The notes: generated from the sequence alone by a model not told the origin. A stretch of 64,000 nt of DNA from an uncultured Eubacteriales bacterium (GCA_949840345.1 CATKWX010000008.1:1801-65800); one strand, 5' to 3'; counted from the stretch's first letter, positions 1 through 62,100 are shown. Numbers and translations are program-made.

Positions 1-589
1 GAGTGATGCCTACATAATTGTGAAACTAAAAGCCAATAAGGAAATAACTGCAAAGTGCGATATAAAAGTTGTTTCTGATGATGTTATAGGAACACCAAGT
101 CCAACTCCAACACCAAGTCCTACACCAGTTGTTCCAAGTCCCATACCAGACCCAAGTCCATTACCAAATCCAGAAGAAGATGAAATAACAAGTAATAAAT
201 ATTTAGTAGATCCAAATAAGGATTATGTTTATGGAATACTACCAAGTATAAAAATAAGTGAGTTCAAATCTAATATAATAGCAAATGTAGATTATAAAAT
301 TTACGATAAAGATGAAACCGTTGTAACAGACGAAGAAAAGATAGTTTCAACTGGTATGAAAATAAAAACTAAAAACAAAGTTTATACTGCGATTGTAAAA
401 GGAGACATAAACGGAGATGGAAAAATTACTATAACAGATGTAGTTAGATGTAATTTATATAATGTAAATATAAAGGTACCAAATGAGATAGAAAAAATTG
501 CAGCAGATGTAAGTGGGGACGGAAAGATTAGCATAACAGATGTGGTTAGATTAAAACTTGCAAGTGTGAATATAAAGCCAATAGGGTAA
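1..589 (+). CDS. C-terminal part of a cellulosomal-type protein: Pro/Thr/Ser linker followed by a type-I dockerin (two Ca-binding repeats, 'GDINGDGKITITD' and 'DVSGDGKISITD'). The 5' end is cut by the window.
   Basis: Translation of the ORF at 20..589 shows a PT-linker plus duplicated dockerin calcium-binding loops; the ORF continues upstream beyond the window. Confidence 0.6.
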   Translation, partial: SDAYIIVKLKANKEITAKCDIKVVSDDVIGTPSPTPTPSPTPVVPSPIPDPSPLPNPEEDEITSNKYLVDPNKDYVYGILPSIKISEFKSNIIANVDYKIYDKDETVVTDEEKIVSTGMKIKTKNKVYTAIVKGDINGDGKITITDVVRCNLYNVNIKVPNEIEKIAADVSGDGKISITDVVRLKLASVNIKPIG

Positions 590-619
590 TATGCGTTTAA
601 ATTTTTGCTAAAATATGAA

Positions 620-784
620 ATACAATAAAAGAATAAAATTCCTCGGCTACATTACAAAATTTAAGAAATTCTAAATTGATTTTATGGCACCCTTTCAAGG
701 CAAGCTTGAACATTTTCCATAAAATCTGCTTAAGAATTTCTAAAATTTTCCATTTGCATTCGTAATTTTATTCCTTTATTGTAT
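620..784 (+). mobile_element. MITE-like ~165 bp element with 21 bp terminal inverted repeats (ATACAATAAAAGAATAAAATT / AATTTTATTCCTTTATTGTAT) and a long internal imperfect hairpin; copy 1 of 3.
   Basis: The 5' and 3' ends are reverse complements with 1 mismatch; related copies lie at ~11149-11325 and 34035-34113. Confidence 0.6.
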
Positions 785-3462: not shown

Positions 3463-3608
3463 ATGACTTAACGCAGATTTAATCAAAGTCATTTCTAATC
3501 TAAGTATATTGTACTATTTTAAATTTAATTTGTCAATATGTTTACCTAAAAATTCCCTTGCAAATTGAAAATATATCATATATAATTTTGCTAAATGAGG
3601 TAGAGATT

Positions 3609-5663
3609 ATGCAAAAGAGTTTGTTGATTACGGAAAAGCCGAGTGTTGCAATGGAGTTTGCAAAGGTGTTGAAAATAAATACAACTAGAAAAGATGGATT
3701 TCTAGAGTCTGACAATTGGGTAGTTACTTGGTGTGTAGGTCATTTAGTTACAATGTCTTATCCAGAAAAGTATGACGAGAATTTAAAGTTTTGGAGATTG
3801 GATACGTTGCCTTTTATTCCAAGTGAATTTAAGTATGAAGTAATACCTGCCGTAGAAAAACAGTTTAATGTAGTTAAGGGATTATTAACAAGAGAAGATA
3901 TTTCTAAAATTTATGTATGTACTGACTCTGGTCGTGAAGGAGAATATATATATAGATTAGTAGACCAAATGGTTGGAGTTACTGGCAAAGAGAAAAGGCG
4001 TGTATGGATAGATTCTCAAACAGAAGAGGCGATTTTAAATGGAATAAAAGACGCAAAAGATTTATCTGAATATGATAGTATTTCAGCTTCTGCATATTTA
4101 AGAGCAAAAGAGGATTACTTAATAGGAATAAATTTTTCAAGGCTTCTTTCAATTATATATGGAAGAAGAGTTGCAAAGCAAATAAATGAGGATAAAGCTT
4201 CCATATCTGTTGGTAGAGTTATGACTTGCGTATTAGGTATGGTGGTATCAAGGGAAAGAGAAATTAGAAATTTTGTAAAAACAAAATATTATAAAATAAT
4301 AGGTGAATTTGGAAGCGACACATCTTCTTTTAAAGCAGAATGGAAGGTAACAGAAAAATCTAGTAAATATAATTCAATAGAATTATACAACGAAACAGGG
4401 TTTAAAAAAGAAGAAGATGCAAAGAAATTTATTTTATCATTAGCAGGTGTAGAAAATGATAACACTGTAGGGAACGAGACCAACGTCGTTCCTAAAAAGA
4501 ACGCTATTGTAACAGAAGTTAAAAAAAGCAAACAAAAAGAAAATCCACCACTACTTTTTAATCTTGCAGAATTACAAAACGAGTGCACAAAAAAGTTCAA
4601 AATAAAACCAGATGAAACATTAGAGGTTGTACAAAATTTATATGAGAAAAAATTAGTAACATATCCAAGAACTGATGCGAGAGTTTTGTCAACAGCAGTA
4701 GCAAAGGAAATTACAAAAAACTTAAATGGAATAAGCAGAGGGTTTCAAAACGAAGAAATAAAAACAATAATAAACAAAATGGTTAGTGAAAAATATTCAA
4801 CAAATCTAATAAAAACAAAATATGTAAATGATAGCAAAATAACAGACCACTATGCTATAATTCCAACAGGACAAGGGTATGAAAATTTTGATAAATTGCC
4901 TGAGCTACATAAGAATATATACATAAACATAGTAAAAAGATTTTTAAGCATATTTTATCCACCAGCAGAATTTAATAAAGTATCTGTAACATTAGAGGTA
5001 GAAAACGAGCAATTTAGTACTAGTGGTAAAGTTTGTACAAATTTGGGATATTTAGAAATATTAAAACAACCTAAAAATACTGTAGAGGAACAGACTAACG
5101 GTGCTTCACAAAATTCAGACGATACCGCAGGGAACGACGCCCCCGTCGTTCCGTTAAATACAGAAACACAAGAAGAAAACAATTTAGACATTTTAAATAC
5201 ATTAAAAAAAGGTCAAGAAATAAATGTAGTAAATTACGAGTTAAAGGAATCTGAAACTACACCACCTACAAGGTACAATTCTGGTTCTATAATTCTAGCA
5301 ATGGAAAACGCAGGAAAACTAATAGAAGATGACGAATTAAGAGAACAAATAAAAGGATGTGGAATTGGAACAAGTGCAACAAGGGCTGAAATTATAAAGA
5401 AGTTGGAAAGAATAAAATATATAGATATAAATAGTAAAACACAAATTATAACTCCAACAAACAAAGGAGAAATAATATTTGATGTAGTAAACTCATCAAT
5501 GCCAGATATGTTAAACCCAAAGCTAACTGCAAGTTGGGAAAAAGGACTAGAAATGGTCGCAAATAAAGAAATTCAGTCAGACGAGTTTATGGGAAAACTA
5601 GAAAACTACATAAAAACAAAAATAAATAAATTGGTTATCCCAGACGGAAGATTATCTATGTAG
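3609..5663 (+). CDS. topB: DNA topoisomerase III (type IA, Toprim domain). It carries two in-frame insertions of GC-rich palindromic repeat elements (~4461-4500 and ~5123-5153).
   Basis: N-terminal 'LLITEKPSVA...WCVGHL' Toprim/topoIA motifs. The ORF track starts at 3558, but the ATG with an RBS is at 3609. Confidence 0.85.
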   Translation: MQKSLLITEKPSVAMEFAKVLKINTTRKDGFLESDNWVVTWCVGHLVTMSYPEKYDENLKFWRLDTLPFIPSEFKYEVIPAVEKQFNVVKGLLTREDISKIYVCTDSGREGEYIYRLVDQMVGVTGKEKRRVWIDSQTEEAILNGIKDAKDLSEYDSISASAYLRAKEDYLIGINFSRLLSIIYGRRVAKQINEDKASISVGRVMTCVLGMVVSREREIRNFVKTKYYKIIGEFGSDTSSFKAEWKVTEKSSKYNSIELYNETGFKKEEDAKKFILSLAGVENDNTVGNETNVVPKKNAIVTEVKKSKQKENPPLLFNLAELQNECTKKFKIKPDETLEVVQNLYEKKLVTYPRTDARVLSTAVAKEITKNLNGISRGFQNEEIKTIINKMVSEKYSTNLIKTKYVNDSKITDHYAIIPTGQGYENFDKLPELHKNIYINIVKRFLSIFYPPAEFNKVSVTLEVENEQFSTSGKVCTNLGYLEILKQPKNTVEEQTNGASQNSDDTAGNDAPVVPLNTETQEENNLDILNTLKKGQEINVVNYELKESETTPPTRYNSGSIILAMENAGKLIEDDELREQIKGCGIGTSATRAEIIKKLERIKYIDINSKTQIITPTNKGEIIFDVVNSSMPDMLNPKLTASWEKGLEMVANKEIQSDEFMGKLENYIKTKINKLVIPDGRLSM
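4461..4500 (+). repeat. In-frame palindromic element (AACACTGTAGGGAACGAGACCAACGTCGTTCC) inside topB, translated as ...NTVGNETNVVPKK...
   Basis: Same head and arms as the intergenic copies at 47233 and 52071; GC-rich island in an AT-rich gene. Confidence 0.6.
5123..5153 (+). repeat. In-frame palindromic element (GCAGGGAACGACGCCCCCGTCGTTCCG) inside topB, translated as ...TAGNDAPVVPL...
   Basis: GGAACGAC...GTCGTTCC arms identical to the family. Confidence 0.55.
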
Positions 5664-6368: not shown

Positions 6369-7516
6369 AAATATCAGAAGCAATAAAATACATTGGAGCA
6401 AGTGACAAAGAAACAAAAATATTCGAAAGTCAATATCATATGCCAAATGGTATGGCATATAATTCATATTTAATAAAAGATGAAAAAAATGTTGTAATGG
6501 ACACTGTAGATAGACATGTAACAGATAAATGGATTAGTAATTTAGAAAAAGAACTAAATGGAGAAAAAGTAGATTACCTAGTAGTTTCACATATGGAGCC
6601 AGACCATGCATTTAATATTGGGCTATTGGCAAATAAATACCCTAATATGAAAATAGTTGGAAACGCAATGACTTTTAGGATGTTAGCAAATTTTTTTGAT
6701 ATAGATATAGAAGAAAGAAAAATTGAAGTAAAAGAAGGAGATACTTTAAATATAGGTAGTCATACTCTACAATTCTTTATGGCACCAATGGTGCATTGGC
6801 CAGAGGTAATGGTAACTTATGAACAAACAGAAAAAGTATTGTTTTCAGCAGACGGATTTGGAAAATTTGGTGCAATAGATACAGATGAAGACTGGGACTG
6901 TGAAGCTAGAAGATATTATTTTGGAATTGTTGGAAAATACGGAGAACAAGTACAGGCTTTATTAAAAAAAGCATCTACTTTAGAAATTAACACAATTTGC
7001 CCATTACACGGACCAATATTAAAAGAAAATTTAGAGCATTATATTAATAAATATGATATATGGAGTAAATATGAACCAGAAGATGATGGAGTATTTATAG
7101 CAGTTGCATCAATTTATGGAAATACTATGGAGGTAGCAAAGAAACTAGGACAAATACTAGAACAAAAGGGAGTAAAGAAGGTTACAATAACAGATTTAGC
7201 AAGAGAAGATATGGCAGAAGCGGTAGAAGATGCATTTAGATATGGAAAAGTAATACTTGCAGCTTCCACATATAATATGAGTGTATTTCCACCAATGAGG
7301 CAGTTCTTAACGAATTTAAAAGAGAGAAATTATCAAAAAAGAAAAATAGGAATAATAGAAAATGGAACATGGGCACCAGCAGCCGGAAAGTGTATGAGAG
7401 AAATTCTAGAGCAAATGAAGGAAATAGAAATTATTGAACCAACAGTTACAATAAAATCAAAAATGAAAGAAGAGGACATTGTAAAACTAGAAATACTAGC
7501 TGAGGAAATATTGTAG
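6356..7516 (+). CDS. fprA: Flavodiiron protein (metallo-beta-lactamase-like di-iron domain plus flavodoxin domain; FprA / O2/NO reductase type).
   Basis: 'HMEPDHA' MBL-like motif and a C-terminal flavodoxin-like segment 'VFIAVASIYGNT'. Confidence 0.7.
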   Translation: MQGIEISEAIKYIGASDKETKIFESQYHMPNGMAYNSYLIKDEKNVVMDTVDRHVTDKWISNLEKELNGEKVDYLVVSHMEPDHAFNIGLLANKYPNMKIVGNAMTFRMLANFFDIDIEERKIEVKEGDTLNIGSHTLQFFMAPMVHWPEVMVTYEQTEKVLFSADGFGKFGAIDTDEDWDCEARRYYFGIVGKYGEQVQALLKKASTLEINTICPLHGPILKENLEHYINKYDIWSKYEPEDDGVFIAVASIYGNTMEVAKKLGQILEQKGVKKVTITDLAREDMAEAVEDAFRYGKVILAASTYNMSVFPPMRQFLTNLKERNYQKRKIGIIENGTWAPAAGKCMREILEQMKEIEIIEPTVTIKSKMKEEDIVKLEILAEEIL

Positions 7517-7554: not shown

Positions 7555-7680
7555 TATATTGCAAACTGTAGGGGCGGACGTCCCTGTCCGCCCGCAAAAC
7601 AGACAATAAACACAGAGTGAATAATTATTTGTAGGGGCACCGTTTGTGGGAATACCCGTGAGATGAGACACTACTGTGCC
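7555..7680 (+). repeat. Composite of two palindromic elements: type B (TGTAGGGGCGGACGTCCCTGTCCGCCCGC) and type D (TGTAGGGGCACCGTTTGTGGGAATACCCGTGAG...CACTACTGTGCCC).
   Basis: Both types recur elsewhere: B at 40409, D at 47275, 53342, 54669 and 56217. Confidence 0.6.
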
Positions 7681-7708
7681 CTTACTTGTTATAAATTTTT
7701 AAGGAGGA

Positions 7709-53038: not shown

Positions 53039-53323
53039 ATGTCTGAAATAAACTCAACCACACCTTGGCAAGACCTAACAATAGGTGGAAATATATATGA
53101 AGCTGGAAATGCAAAAAATTTTAAAACAGGAGACTGGAGAAGTGTAAAGCCAATATACTTATCTGAAAAATGTAAACAATGTGGTTTATGTTTTCCAGTT
53201 TGCCCAGATGATGCAATACCAGTAAATAAAGAACAAAAAAGAGAAGATTTTAATTACGATATGTGTAAAGGTTGCGGAGTATGTGCAAAAGTATGCCCAT
53301 TTGGTGCAATCGAAATGCAGTAA
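53039..53323 (+). CDS. porD: 2-oxoacid:ferredoxin oxidoreductase delta subunit (2x[4Fe-4S]).
   Basis: Two CxxCxxCxxxCP motifs. Confidence 0.8.
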   Translation: MSEINSTTPWQDLTIGGNIYEAGNAKNFKTGDWRSVKPIYLSEKCKQCGLCFPVCPDDAIPVNKEQKREDFNYDMCKGCGVCAKVCPFGAIEMQ

Positions 53324-53330
53324 ATATATA

Positions 53331-53462
53331 TTGCAAACATTGTAGGGGCACCGTTTGCGGGAATACCCTGTAGGGAACGACGCCCTCGTCGTTCCGCAGA
53401 CACCACTGTGCCCTTGTTAATGAATAGTGAAGAGTACAAAATTCTTCCAATTTTGAAAGGAG
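53331..53462 (+). repeat. Nested repeat: a type-D element (GTAGGGGCACCGTTTGCGGGAATACCC|...|GCAGACACCACTGTGCCC) interrupted by a complete type-A element (TGTAGGGAACGACGCCCTCGTCGTTCC), followed by AGTGAA repeats plus hairpin plus RBS.
   Basis: Comparison with uninterrupted D copies at 47275 and 54669. Confidence 0.6.
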
Positions 53463-53470
53463 AAATAAAA

Positions 53471-54652
53471 ATGTCAATAAGAGAACGTTTAAGTGGAAAT
53501 GAAGCAGCAGCAATAGCTATGAAACAAATAAATCCAGATGTAGTAGCAGCATTTCCAATAACACCATCAACAGAAATACCACAATATTTTTCAAGTTTCG
53601 TAAGCAATGGAGCGGTGGATACAGAATTTGTAGCAGTAGAAAGTGAACATAGTGCAATGAGTGCTTGTATCGGAGCAGAGGCAGCAGGAGCTAGAGCAAT
53701 GACAGCGACTTCATCTAATGGTTTATCTTTAATGTGGGAAATGATATATATAGCTTCAAGTTTAAGATTACCTATAGTAATGTCTCTAGTAAATAGAGCA
53801 GTATCAGGACCTCTAAACATACATAATGACCATTCAGATGCAATGGGAGTTAGAGATTCTGGTTGGATACAATTATTTTCAGAAAATAATCAAGAAGCAT
53901 ATGACAATTTAGTTATGGCACATAGAATAGCAGAACATAAAGATGTATTATTGCCATTAATGGTATGTCAAGATGGATTTATAACATCACACTCAATAGA
54001 AAATATAGAATTAATAGAAGATGATCTAGTAAAGAAATTTGTTGGAACATATAAACCAGAGCATTACTTATTAAATGACAAAGAGCCTATGGCAGTTGGA
54101 CCTTTAGATTTACAAGCATATTTATTTGAACATAAAAGACAACAAGCTGAGGCTATGAGAAATGCAAAAAAAGTTGTATTAGAAGTTTCAAAAGAATTCG
54201 AAAAAATGACAGGAAGAAAATATGGTTTCTTTGAAGAATACAAATTAGAAGATGCAGAAATTGCAATAGTTTGTATGAACTCAACAGCCGGAACTACAAA
54301 GTATACAGTAGATAAATTAAGAGAAAAAGGAATTAAAGCTGGGTTATTAAAAATAAGAATGTTTAGACCATTTCCAACAGAAGAAGTTGCAAAAGCATTA
54401 TCACACTTAAAAGCAGTTGCAGTACTTGATAAAGCAGATTCTTTAAATGGGGCTGGTGGAGCTCTATTTGAAGATGTAATATCTAGTATGTATGTATCAA
54501 ACATACATGTACCAACTGTAAATTATGTATATGGTATTGGTGGAAGAGATACAAAAGCAGACGATATAGAAAAAGTGTACAATGATTTAAGTGAAATTGT
54601 AAAAACAGGAAATATAAATAATCCATACAGATATTTAGGAGTAAGAGAATAA
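53471..54652 (+). CDS. porA: 2-oxoacid:ferredoxin oxidoreductase alpha subunit.
   Basis: POR alpha family; ATG with RBS at 53471 (the track start 53408 is inside the repeat). Confidence 0.8.
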   Translation: MSIRERLSGNEAAAIAMKQINPDVVAAFPITPSTEIPQYFSSFVSNGAVDTEFVAVESEHSAMSACIGAEAAGARAMTATSSNGLSLMWEMIYIASSLRLPIVMSLVNRAVSGPLNIHNDHSDAMGVRDSGWIQLFSENNQEAYDNLVMAHRIAEHKDVLLPLMVCQDGFITSHSIENIELIEDDLVKKFVGTYKPEHYLLNDKEPMAVGPLDLQAYLFEHKRQQAEAMRNAKKVVLEVSKEFEKMTGRKYGFFEEYKLEDAEIAIVCMNSTAGTTKYTVDKLREKGIKAGLLKIRMFRPFPTEEVAKALSHLKAVAVLDKADSLNGAGGALFEDVISSMYVSNIHVPTVNYVYGIGGRDTKADDIEKVYNDLSEIVKTGNINNPYRYLGVRE

Positions 54653-54668
54653 TAATAAATGGTTAAAA

Positions 54669-54720
54669 TGTAGGGGCACCGTTTGTGGGAATACCCGTTA
54701 GGTTACGACACCACTGTGCC
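54669..54720 (+). repeat. Type-D palindromic element.
   Basis: GTAGGGGCACCGTTTGTGGGAATACCCGTTAGGTTACGACACCACTGTGCCC. Confidence 0.6.
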
Positions 54721-54746
54721 CAGGATAAAAGGAGGAGAAAAATAAA

Positions 54747-55701
54747 ATGGCATATAATCATAAAGAAATAATTGCAAACCGTCCATCTAGATTTACATCT
54801 GGGCATAGAATGTGTGCAGGATGTGGTGCACCACCAGTAGCAAGAATGGTATTAAGAGCATTAAAACCAGAAGACCATGCAGTAATAACAGGTGCAACAG
54901 GTTGTATGGAAGTTTCAACATTTATATATCCATATACAGCGTGGACAGATTCATTTATACACACAGCATTTGAATGTGCAGGTGCAACTTGTTCAGGAGT
55001 TGAAGCTGCATATAAATCAATGAAGGCTCAAGGAAAATTGCCACAAGATAAAGATACAAAGTTTATAGCATTTGGAGGAGACCGGAGGAACTTACGATAT
55101 AGGAATACAAAGTTTATCTGGTGCAATGGAAAGAGGACACGATATGGTATATGTATGCTATGATAACGGAGCATATATGAATACTGGTATTCAAAGATCT
55201 TCTGCAACACCAAAATTTGCAGATACAACAACAACACCAGCAGGAACAAAAGTGCCTGGAAAAATGCAATCAAGAAAAGATTTAACTTTAATAATGGCAA
55301 ATCATCATTTACCATATGTTGCACAAACTGCTGCTATAATGAACTTTAAAGATTTATATGAAAAATCTGAAAAAGCAATATATACAAAAGGAGCATGTTT
55401 CCTAAATGTATTAGCACCATGCCCAAGAGGTTGGGGATATCCAACAGAAATGCTAATGGAAATAAATAAGCTTGCAGTTGAAACTTGCTATTGGCCATTA
55501 TATGAAGTAGAAAATGGAAAGTATAAAATAACCTATAAACCAGCAAAGAAATTGCCAATAGAAGAGTTCTTAAAACCACAAAAAAGATTTAAACATATGT
55601 TTAAACCAGGAAATGAATGGATGATAGAAGAATTCCAAAAAGAAGTAGATGCAAGATGGGAAGAACTATTAAGATTAGAAGAAATAACAAATAAGGAATA
55701 A
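54747..55701 (+). pseudogene. porB: 2-oxoacid:ferredoxin oxidoreductase beta subunit (TPP-binding). The frame breaks at an in-frame CGG (~55083); the +1 frame restores 'FGGDGGTYDIGIQ'.
   Basis: Track ORFs 54747-55163 and 55072-55701 join seamlessly with a +1 shift after 'GAC CGG'. Confidence 0.7.
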
Positions 55702-58692: not shown

Positions 58693-59358
58693 ATGTTTGA
58701 GAATATTGCTAATTTTTTTAGAAAATTAATGAAATCAGAAAAAAAAGAGCAAGGGTCAAGAGATGCAGCAAAAGAAAGATTACACCTAGTATTAATGCAA
58801 GATAGAGCAAATGTGTCAGCTGACTTTTTAGAACTAATGAAACAAGAAATAATTGATGTTATAAAAAAATATATAGAAGTAGATGAAAAAGAAATAGATG
58901 TTAGATTAACAAACAAGGAAAATGAAGATGGAACAAATGGAGCACCTGCGTTATATGCCAATATACCAATTTTAAATATTAGAAATGAAATGAAAAAAGA
59001 AGTTATGACAGAAAAGCAAGTTGAAAATACAGAAACCGAAAACAGTGAAGACGTAGGGACTTTAACTTCTAATTCGGAAGAAATGCAAGAAAATCAAAGT
59101 AAGGAAGAAACAAAACAAGAAAACATAGATGTAGAGGTAAGCATTGCTTGTCCGGAAGAAATACAAGAAAATCAAAATAATGGAGAAATGAAACAAGACA
59201 ATGCAGATGTAGAGACAAGCATTGCTCGTCCAGAAGAAATGCAAGAAAATCAAAATAATGAAGAAACTAAACAAGAAAATATTGAAAACATAGAAGAACA
59301 AAGTATTGAAACTGTTAATGTACAACCAGAAGTAGTTAATCAAACAAATAATATATAA
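58693..59358 (+). CDS. minE: MinE topological specificity factor with an unusual ~130 aa acidic C-terminal extension. The extension is built from ~81 bp tandem repeats that include palindromic-element-like sequence.
   Basis: The MinE core occupies the N-terminal ~90 aa. Repeats 'EEMQENQ..EETKQENIDVEVSIACPEE' x3 correspond to DNA 'GATGTAGAGGTAAGCATTGCTTGTCCGGAAG' and 'GATGTAGAGACAAGCATTGCTCGTCCAGAAG'. Confidence 0.7.
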   Translation: MFENIANFFRKLMKSEKKEQGSRDAAKERLHLVLMQDRANVSADFLELMKQEIIDVIKKYIEVDEKEIDVRLTNKENEDGTNGAPALYANIPILNIRNEMKKEVMTEKQVENTETENSEDVGTLTSNSEEMQENQSKEETKQENIDVEVSIACPEEIQENQNNGEMKQDNADVETSIARPEEMQENQNNEETKQENIENIEEQSIETVNVQPEVVNQTNNI

Positions 59359-59449: not shown

Positions 59450-59530
59450 ATGCGGGCGGACTTAGAGGCCCGCCACTACAAAAAACATATTGCAAACTTT
59501 GTAGGGGTCAATGCTCACATTGACCCGTTT
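59450..59530 (+). repeat. Two palindromic elements (GCGGGCGGACTTAGAGGCCCGCC; CATATTGCAAACTTTGTAGGGGTCAATGCTCACATTGACCC) in the rodA 5' region.
   Basis: Family members. Confidence 0.55.
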
Positions 59531-62004: not shown

Positions 62005-62100
62005 TAAAAATATTGCATATTGTAGGGGCGCATGATTGCGCCCATTGAAGAGTGAATAATGAAGAGTGAAGAGTACAAAAATCTTCGATTTTTGAGAAAG
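62005..62100 (+). repeat. 5' UTR module: ATATTGCATATTGTAGGGGCGCATGATTGCGCCC (E), AGAGTGAATAATGAAGAGTGAAGAG, TACAAAAATCTTCGATTTTTGAGAAAGG.
   Basis: Near-identical to 31936-31990. Confidence 0.6.

Follow-up and report, generated by a model that had tools for sequence, protein, structure and literature searches.

The closest described counterparts of the elements reported here are the REP sequences of Escherichia coli and their BIME mosaics. In such REPs, an imperfect palindrome has a GTAG head at its 5' foot. They are mostly extragenic, fall into several subfamilies with a common head, and form mosaics with other short motifs, and a lone HUH/Tyr gene, that of TnpA-REP (RAYT, YafM), stands between inverted copies. 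This arrangement, the REPtron, has been described for E. coli and others (PMC3333891, PMC6006769). TnpA-REP of E. coli binds single-stranded REPs through GTAG and the irregularity of the stem, cleaves in vitro at C/T on either flank of the REP, with little specificity and by way of a 5'-phosphotyrosine intermediate, and makes REP/BIME variants by cleavage and strand transfer; strand transfer 'can create sequence variability' and tandem copies (PMC3333891). In Pseudomonas fluorescens SBW25, the mobile unit is an inverted REP doublet (REPIN), a non-autonomous repeat tied to single-copy RAYTs (Bertels & Rainey 2011, PMC3116915). GTAG-tagged palindromes of 20-40 nt have been surveyed as well; many of them are located downstream of or between co-directional genes, some lie in frame within genes, and some families are regularly inserted within other palindromes (PMC3733652). 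The survey mentions neither Firmicutes nor Clostridia (0 occurrences), and its background section cites REPs as targets of insertion sequences (Di Nocera et al. 2013, PMC3733652). REP/RAYT systems are known above all from proteobacteria, and the way in which RAYTs act on REPs in the cell is still unresolved.

For insertion sequences of the IS1397/ISKpn1 type, the central part of the REP hairpin is a preferred insertion point. A modular intergenic mosaic is also known from a low-GC Gram-positive bacterium, namely the BOX element of Streptococcus pneumoniae (boxA-boxB(n)-boxC), which is built from a leader, variable internal hairpins and a trailer. BOX lacks both a GTAG head and an associated RAYT.

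We analysed a 64-kb stretch of DNA (the window, ~29% GC) from an uncultured, very AT-rich lineage of mouse-gut Clostridia (MAGs GCA_949095705.1 and relatives). Between porD and porA of the four-subunit pyruvate:ferredoxin oxidoreductase operon lies a composite, D(A), in which one short repeat element (A) stands between the arms of another (D). With a probability of roughly 0.7, we read this feature as a REP-in-REP mosaic of a REP/RAYT system in low-GC gut Clostridia, strand transfer by the RAYT being its presumed origin. The system is of the REP/RAYT kind with BIME-like mosaics, and repeat-in-repeat arrangements are already known; D(A) alters no major concept and is a fairly ordinary mosaic in an unusual host. 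Less familiar are the Clostridia host (class 2 TnpA-Y1 genes have been reported mainly in other phyla), the form of D, the fixed apex with several guests, and the double inactivation of the RAYT gene. Here, a compact Clostridia system presents a host REP with a fixed frame, the centre of which has repeatedly accepted other hairpin repeats.

The elements of the window and its relatives resemble E. coli REPs in the GTAG head at the foot of a palindrome, the inverted copies around one HUH/Tyr gene, the several subfamilies with a common head and the mosaics with other short motifs; the copies in the sequence examined are mostly extragenic. Unlike in E. coli, the host is an uncultured member of the Clostridia with ~29% GC and not a proteobacterium, the RAYT protein is shorter (~150 aa) and stays below the NCBIfam cutoff (57.7 vs 80 bits), D forms a weak hairpin, its long unpaired arms being conserved and its centre hypervariable, and the copies in the window are almost all in one orientation instead of forming inverted doublets. 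The REPINs of SBW25 are likewise non-autonomous repeats linked to RAYTs; in contrast to them, each unit found here is one GTAG hairpin in direct orientation, with the guest at one fixed position of the host REP, the apex, where it replaces the centre. GTAG-tagged palindromes resemble our modules in size and in their position between or within genes, whereas the host palindromes described among them are not RAYT-flanking REPs. Unlike IS1397 and ISKpn1, the guests are hairpins of 23-40 nt with no transposase gene and no target duplication seen. The likeness to BOX (leader, variable internal hairpin modules, trailer) is one of architecture, and none of sequence would be expected. The features of the composite and the intact D copies of the window are the following:

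7630-7681, plus strand: intact D with the other centre, GTGAGATGA
47274-47326, plus strand: intact D in a regulator-kinase spacer, preceded by an A-variant at 47233-47258
53039-53323, plus strand: porD, 4Fe-4S delta subunit; its final codons differ between filled and empty alleles
53326-53340, plus strand: L-module ATATATATTGCAAACAT, the 5' leader ahead of the first GTAG module in most arrays
53341-53368, plus strand: left arm of D (D-left), 28 nt, TGTAGGGGCACCGTTTGCGGGAATACCC, the same as the left arm of RAYT-flanking D copies
53369-53395, plus strand: A module (the guest), 27 nt, TGTAGGGAACGACGCCCTCGTCGTTCC, TGTAG plus a GC-rich hairpin with a perfect 9-bp stem and the loop CCCT
53396-53398, plus strand: linker GCA (GTT in L008, GTC in L151)
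53399-53413, plus strand: right arm of D (D-right), 15 nt, GACACCACTGTGCCC, made up of GACACCACT, conserved and unpaired, and the 3' half of the closing stem
53414-53456, plus strand: R-module, short repeats of the GTGAA type and an AT-rich hairpin (CAAAATT..AATTTTG), just 5' of the porA ribosome-binding site
53471-54652, plus strand: porA, pyruvate:ferredoxin oxidoreductase alpha subunit, 3' of the composite
54669-54721, plus strand: intact D in the porA-porB spacer

Positions 53341-53413 read TGTAGGGGCACCGTTTGCGGGAATACCC + TGTAGGGAACGACGCCCTCGTCGTTCC + GCA + GACACCACTGTGCCC. D-left consists of the GTAG head, GGGCAC (the 5' half of the closing stem), CGTTTG, and a mini-hairpin, GGG-AATA-CCC; the linker resembles the G[CT]N that trails most modules. 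In the three intact D copies of the window, the left arm differs by one base from that of the split copy and the right arm is the same. An earlier note on this DNA had described D as split by a complete A, behind which it resumes. A complete A is indeed present between the two arms, and the three intact copies on which the note relied, like the 64 canonical copies known by now, do define the uninterrupted form. D does not simply resume, because the 9-10-nt centre (GTTAGGTTAY or GTGAGATGA, between ...ACCC and GACAC...) is absent from the split copy, which has only GCA there. When A was excised in silico, ACCC-GCA-GACACC remained, which is an incomplete host D and not the product of a clean interruption. 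Since the centre is wholly missing, A replaces it rather than interrupts D. MAFFT proposed another alignment, with a 20-nt insertion and 6 substitutions, which we rejected because replacement by the exact A 27-mer is the more parsimonious account. Because the mini-hairpin GGGAATACCC is directly followed by A, the outer stem of D can still form, and so can the A hairpin; indeed, the predicted ssDNA folds of nested copies retain the outer D stem and the stem of the guest. The composite is presumably co-transcribed with the por operon, and any present effect of a hairpin in the RNA or DNA between porD and porA would be hypothetical.

The TGTAGGG heptamer that heads both A and D occurs 23 times in the window, always on the plus strand, versus 2.6 times expected, and three independent NCBI MAGs (L001-L003; L numbers designate the loci compared) have the whole 147-nt spacer in identical form, with a diverged version in L008/L009. 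Therefore, the composite is neither a chance arrangement nor an error of assembly. Contigs do often end at such repeats (L004, L069 and L070 end inside or adjoining them), as a chimeric join at repeats within a MAG would have it. Given that the spacer recurs unchanged in independent MAGs and diverged in two other samples, and that the same architecture exists at another locus in another sample (L151), the probability of such an artefact is negligible.

To describe D, we scanned one genome per species with a pattern for D-left that left the right arm unconstrained. The scan returned 53 loci from ~15 uncultured Clostridia MAG species. Among 56 distinct D copies, every position of D-right, an arm that was not in the search pattern, was conserved to at least 90%; both arms were nearly invariant, and the centre (8-11 nt) was hypervariable and without consensus. 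TGTAG precedes GGGCAC...GTGCCC in nearly all D copies, and the closing stem of 6 bp is present in every predicted fold. The right-arm variants are single mismatches; since the pattern fixed the left arm, covariation of the stem is uninformative. The distinct D-left occurrences in all the DNA examined comprise 64 canonical copies, none of which carries A, 4 copies with a GTAG hairpin between the arms, 2 that abut a module without D-right, and 4 elongated copies (D-long, see below), plus RAYT-adjacent copies in L072-81. The window has 4 D copies and ~20 other GTAG modules in 64 kb, and one MAG (CAPZDM) has at least 12 D copies.

All 23 TGTAGGG heads (23/23) are in gene orientation, copies lie just upstream of start codons, and D combines conserved arms with a variable centre, all of which would suit a structured regulatory RNA in 5' leaders with the A hairpin as a tolerated variable stem. 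Many RNA families carry expansion segments. Nevertheless, we consider a regulatory RNA very improbable. No Rfam family was matched by the whole window at the gathering threshold or by positions 53250-54800 even at E <= 1, and the fold of D itself is weak (z about -1 to -2.2). Moreover, D precedes unrelated genes and is missing from the same spacers in 98%-identical strains, modules also occur within coding regions, and D stands in inverted pairs around a transposase-like gene.

In six lineages, D copies flank this gene, which encodes ~150 aa: inverted pairs are found at L056, L064, L072-81, L082-86 and L191-193, and at L050 only the downstream D is present within the sequence examined. At three loci (L050, L056 and L064), the gene, with its PNHIH and YWQRNYYEH motifs, was found via D alone. 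The REPtron of L056, in which, as in L064, the D heads point outward, is arranged as follows:

177-228, plus strand: D
241-669, minus strand: the ~150-aa gene
691-742, minus strand: D

PNHIHFILE and YWQRNYYEH are present in the proteins of L050, L056, L064, L072 and L191, and both motifs align with E. coli TnpA-REP (4ER8), which is also the best PDB match (E = 4e-7). The NCBIfam model REP_Tyr_transpos was matched with E = 1e-15 and 57.7 bits (cutoff 80), the IS200 model with only 18.6 bits, and Pfam Y1_Tnp with 19-24 bits (cutoff 23). More distant homologues are labelled 'REP element-mobilizing transposase RayT' by their sources. A tblastn search with IS200 and E. coli RAYT queries served as a lead only, and its hits were confirmed with Pfam, NCBIfam and PDB searches. 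Because inverted D copies flank the gene, and because NCBIfam, Pfam, 4ER8 and the names of the homologues agree, D is, on sequence grounds, the cognate REP of a putative RAYT, a domesticated, TnpA-REP-like HUH/Tyr enzyme. One RAYT locus was seen per MAG among the loci examined. The 64-kb window contains no RAYT gene, and no RAYT flanked by copies of A was found at the loci examined.

A is an independent, sharply bounded unit. Its perfect 9-bp stem behind TGTAG folds with -10.7 kcal/mol as ssDNA (z = -5.2), and a GTAG head joined to a palindrome, repeated and dispersed, makes it a GTAG-tagged REP-like hairpin. The ~0.5 Mb examined contained 13 distinct copies, 7 of them with the identical 27-mer, which is solo in L005 (three copies) and L034 and nested in the window, L008 and L151. 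Variants of A are located at 4466, 31866, 39784, 47233 and 52070 of the window, among them these solo copies:

4466-4492, plus strand: solo A-variant, in frame within a type-IA topoisomerase gene
52070-52095, plus strand: solo A-variant, upstream of porG

No common target motif was found 5' of the solo A copies. The sole regularity is that A often directly follows the foot of another hairpin, ...GATTTTTGA or GGGAATACCC. The topoisomerase ORF (3558-5663; Pfam Topoisom_bac, E = 1e-93) carries its 27-nt A-type module in frame as xxT GTA GGG...; the same insertion is present in another species, with a second copy in the gene (L040:4675, 5323).

A search for other nested configurations gave the following set, in which the parts are named from the end of D-left onwards:

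Window: ACCC + A + GCA + D-right
L008/9, ortholog of the window: ACCCG + A + GTT + D-right
L151, pheS-pheT spacer: ACCC + A + GTC + D-right
L068, a D variant of the GGTTCTAAGGG type: ACCCG + hairpin TGTAGGGGCGCATGATTGCGCCC + TGCT + D-right

An intact copy of the GGTTCTAAGGG-type variant is found in L008 (about 11040-11100), and hairpin TGTAGGGGCGCATGATTGCGCCC is also found solo at 31935 and 62021 of the window. Besides the guest, guest-bearing D copies have just 3-5 nt, versus 9-10 nt in canonical D, and these residual nucleotides resemble the G[CT]N tail of modules elsewhere. A different enlargement is seen in the D-long forms of 91 or 126 nt (L028, ~6890-6980; L036:121-211; L053; L062; L072:1394-1484), in which an AT-rich hairpin follows GGGAATACC and the typical centre (..AGACAT) is kept; in the 126-nt form, a further hairpin lies inside the AT-rich one. 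At L072, D-long stands on one flank of the RAYT gene and a short D on the other. We also scanned metagenomes for the junction GGGAATACCC N0-2 TGTAGGG. Only 3 of the 103 loci returned were real (L089, L107 and L151), the others being chance 17-mers in unrelated GC-rich DNA. The point just 3' of GGGAATACCC is thus a recurrent site of change, which more than one kind of guest has entered. The claim of the earlier note that the elements target each other or a shared sequence context can thus be upheld for a recurrent position with an ACCC(G) junction, which other guests share (L068, L089, D-long); 5' of the solo A copies, no common target motif came to light.

The same forms bear on the question of where the composite arose. 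A single ancient nesting could have produced a longer subtype, D(A), and this could then have spread by copying to several sites like any D-type REP; if so, the copy in the por spacer would be uninformative on A targeting D. At the non-orthologous pheS-pheT site of L151, the architecture is that of the window and the boundaries are exactly TGTAG...GTGCCC. Likewise, the A/GCA/D-right junction in a regulator-kinase spacer of L005 is identical to that of the window, and the D-long subtypes are enlarged forms of D that propagate and even flank RAYT genes. However, the linkers differ (GCA, GTT, GTC) while A is identical in 27/27 positions. Between the D(A) copies of the window and L151, 2 of the 4 substitutions fall within the 3-nt linker (P = 0.007), and between those of the window and L008 it is 2 of 3 (P = 0.003). 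This concentration indicates that the junction formed more than once or that it shares the hypervariability of the D centre. The D variant of L068, with its different guest at the equivalent position, shows that the position was hit more than once. On balance, descent of all copies from one D(A) is a serious option that falls somewhat short of being probable. The earlier note had considered that the insert might turn out to be part of a longer D subtype present elsewhere, and this has in part come true: D(A) exists at L151, half-junctions at L107 and L005, and the D-long subtypes are real. Hence, the por copy may be a pre-formed composite and not the result of an event in situ.

Half-forms were found as well. 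L089 has D-left followed by a B-like module and L107 has D-left+A+GCA, neither with D-right. The regulator-kinase spacer illustrates both kinds: the window has an A-variant, a 15-nt tail and an intact D there, L005 has A+GCA+D-right with identical flanks and no D-left, and it is in this spacer that L107 has its D-left+A+GCA without D-right. The window contains another chimera:

34160-34206, plus strand: B-type hairpin + GCAC + D-right-like tail GACACCAC CTAAGCCC, with an inverted REP before it at 34118-34141

A paralogous composite in L008 (~5540-5620) is a full D with the rare tail of this chimera. No insertion at all would be needed if D-left, A and D-right were modules, arranged by illegitimate or homologous recombination within arrays, that is, by slippage, deletion or gene conversion between the common TGTAGGG heads. 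D-left, at 28 nt, has the size of other modules and can abut a module without D-right (L107, L089), D-right occurs with no D-left before it, behind A (L005) or behind a B-type hairpin (window 34160), and one and the same spacer has different module sets in different strains. A deletion between TGTAGGG repeats would turn D(A) into the form seen in L005, and this form is the expected leftover of a deletion between the TGTAGGG(AAC) repeats of the upstream A-variant and the nested A. For such left-only and right-only chimeras, recombination of modules is at least as good a description as the 'nesting' of the earlier note. As an account of D(A) itself it is a serious rival, though we find it rather unlikely, since 64 of the ~74 D-left occurrences continue to D-right after 8-11 nt, the arms pair, and they flank RAYT genes as one unit. 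Furthermore, array modules are otherwise separated by spacers, direct abutment occurring only after D-left, and the half-forms are more simply explained as deletion derivatives of D(A).

We therefore return to the REP-in-REP mosaic as the preferred reading. According to it, A with its usual 3-nt tail would have taken the place of the centre of D, most likely through single-strand cleavage and strand transfer by the RAYT at a CC/T-type junction; afterwards, the composite may have been copied as a D-type unit, or the event may have recurred at other D copies. The left junction ACCC/TGTAG is of the CC/T form, D-long has ACC/TACG, and several solo A copies have C/T at both boundaries, which is compatible, by analogy with the E. 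coli enzyme, with cleavage and rejoining at the D centre. A single C/T cut-and-paste was discarded: A is followed by G and not by T, and 9-10 nt of D are lost. Because the right junctions (A then G) do not fit such a one-site reaction, our confidence in the RAYT model is only moderate. The perfect stem of A lacks the mismatch that E. coli TnpA-REP requires (PMC3333891), so that action of the RAYT on A is no more than a possibility, and the chimeras without D-left (L005; window 34160) or without D-right (L107, L089) fit recombination of modules equally. One might go further and regard the D apex as a dedicated exchange point, at which the RAYT cuts on both sides and swaps GTAG-headed hairpins to give combinatorial REPs. 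We think this quite doubtful. If true, such a cassette exchange would also explain the hypervariable centre of D, and a small, easily synthesised system would offer a handle on the still unknown RAYT reaction in vivo.

To follow the history of the site, we compared the por operon among strains. Nine PorA-based contig look-ups revealed only three states of the porD-porA spacer. It was empty (15-19 nt) in L005-7, L066/67, L010 and L011/12, held the leader ATTGCAAAC and a B-type hairpin in L071, which was filled independently, and held the nested composite in the window and L008/9. An intact D was found in none of them, and so there is no before/after pair for this spacer. Over the operon, L066 shares 98.4% identity with the window, yet has neither the composite nor the D of the porA-porB spacer; its PorA is identical over 393 aligned residues and has two extra residues at the C terminus. 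L008 is 93% identical to the window across the operon, yet the composite is present. The porA-porB D is absent in L005, L008, L010, L011, L066 and L071, and in L068-70 this site has two other GTAG hairpins. The R-module behind the composite is part of a segment of ~127 nt that is missing from empty-site alleles. Filled and empty alleles also differ in their flanks (stop-codon context, ribosome-binding site), and the local identity profiles are uneven, which points to probable allele exchange by homologous recombination rather than recent excision.

The state of the RAYT gene was evaluated in relatives of the window. A RAYT relative of 100 aa (P0143) is encoded in GCA_948901475.1, the MAG assembly of L002 with its identical por locus, and was also present in sample ERR3199635, the source of L004. 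At L082, which comes from the same assembly as L002, the RAYT gene between a D on the plus strand (1432-1484) and a D on the minus strand (1805-1857) has an in-frame deletion of 150 nt, the same in five assemblies, that removes the whole region of the tyrosine motif. The orthologous REPtron of a related strain, L192/L193 (97% identical; L192:460-1040), is full length, but the TGG codon of its WQ motif is TGA. At L191 (1929-2510; 88% nucleotide identity), the RAYT gene is intact. Judging by these predicted lesions, the RAYT at the loci seen is inactivated twice in the window's species. P0122, a database protein, continues through the TGA, apparently because genetic code 4 was used to call it.

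Since the composite is common to strains that are 93% identical and the RAYT is now inactivated, the nesting event is old, and an old event followed by loss of the RAYT means that the present pattern of presence and absence reflects past activity plus homologous allele exchange. Of the ongoing or past mobility that had been deduced from the nesting, past mobility stands, whereas ongoing mobility is unlikely in the window's species, with its broken RAYT and a composite shared with a 93%-identical strain. Empty, filled and re-filled sites in close strains, together with a transposase lost twice, provide a natural series for the turnover and decay of REPs.

The uniform plus orientation of the heads could result from insertion into the lagging-strand template, as in IS200/IS605 relatives, or from selection relative to transcription. 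Since the GC skew and almost all genes run in one direction, the two readings cannot be told apart in this window. The sole minus-strand GTAG heads of the window are found at 34118-34206 and 59470-59526, where inverted CGTAGGGGCGAGCATTGCTCGTCC, leader and forward hairpin make up inverted-plus-direct REP doublets (BIME/REPIN-like).

Many spacers of the window are mosaics of four kinds of part: a leader, which is ATATTGCAAAC plus 2 nt; one or more GC-rich hairpins of several types that have a GTAG head and, in most cases, a G[CT]N tail; short repeats of the GTGAA type; and an AT-rich hairpin just before the ribosome-binding site. The leader, as ATTGCAAAC plus 2 nt, stands directly 5' of TGTAGGG at 7558, 31855, 34149, 47138, 51302, 53330 and 59489. 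Relatives of the R-module are located at 47190-47232, 51370-51411 and 62050-62094. For annotation, these repeats account for the GC-rich islands in spacers and in some coding regions of such MAGs. The AT-rich trailer hairpin, CAAAAATC..GATTTTTG, recurs directly upstream of ribosome-binding sites (53414-53456, 47190-47232, 62050-62094 and 31961-31990) and may have an effect on translation or processing.

Repeats were also observed in other genes. A GH94 cyclic-glucan-synthase-like gene is distributed over five ORFs in the window (38002-46228), and L011 has one ORF of >2314 aa. The ORF at 39152-40711 in this region contains three GTAG modules (39784, 40408 and 40567) in one reading frame. Probably, this gene is in decay and repeats have colonised it. 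The minE ORF (58693-59358) encodes 221 aa and includes 2.6 copies of a 78-nt tandem repeat (59075-59279), the unit of which contains TGTAGAGACAAGCATTGCTCGTCC, a degenerate GTAG module akin to the hairpin at 52113. This tandem repeat is repeat-derived coding sequence.

Further variation was observed in the por operon. The gene for the TPP-binding beta subunit, porB, is present as two overlapping ORFs in different frames in the window (54747-55163 and 55072-55701), L005, L008 and L066, and as a single ORF of 317 aa in L010, L011 and L071; the split could be a frameshift, a pseudogene or a case of recoding. The porG-porD spacer (52819-53038) contains an AT-rich palindromic MITE-like insert of ~220 nt that is unrelated to the GTAG modules; its two sets of inverted repeats are 52842-56 with 52973-87, and 52915-43 with 52994-53022. 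The window, L066 and L008 have this insert, whereas L071 and L010 lack it. Finally, the regulator-kinase spacer of the more distant relative L011 (~4320-4350) contains a 'mini-D', the perfect palindrome TGTAGGGGGCACATTACAATGTGCCC, which consists of the D closing stem alone.
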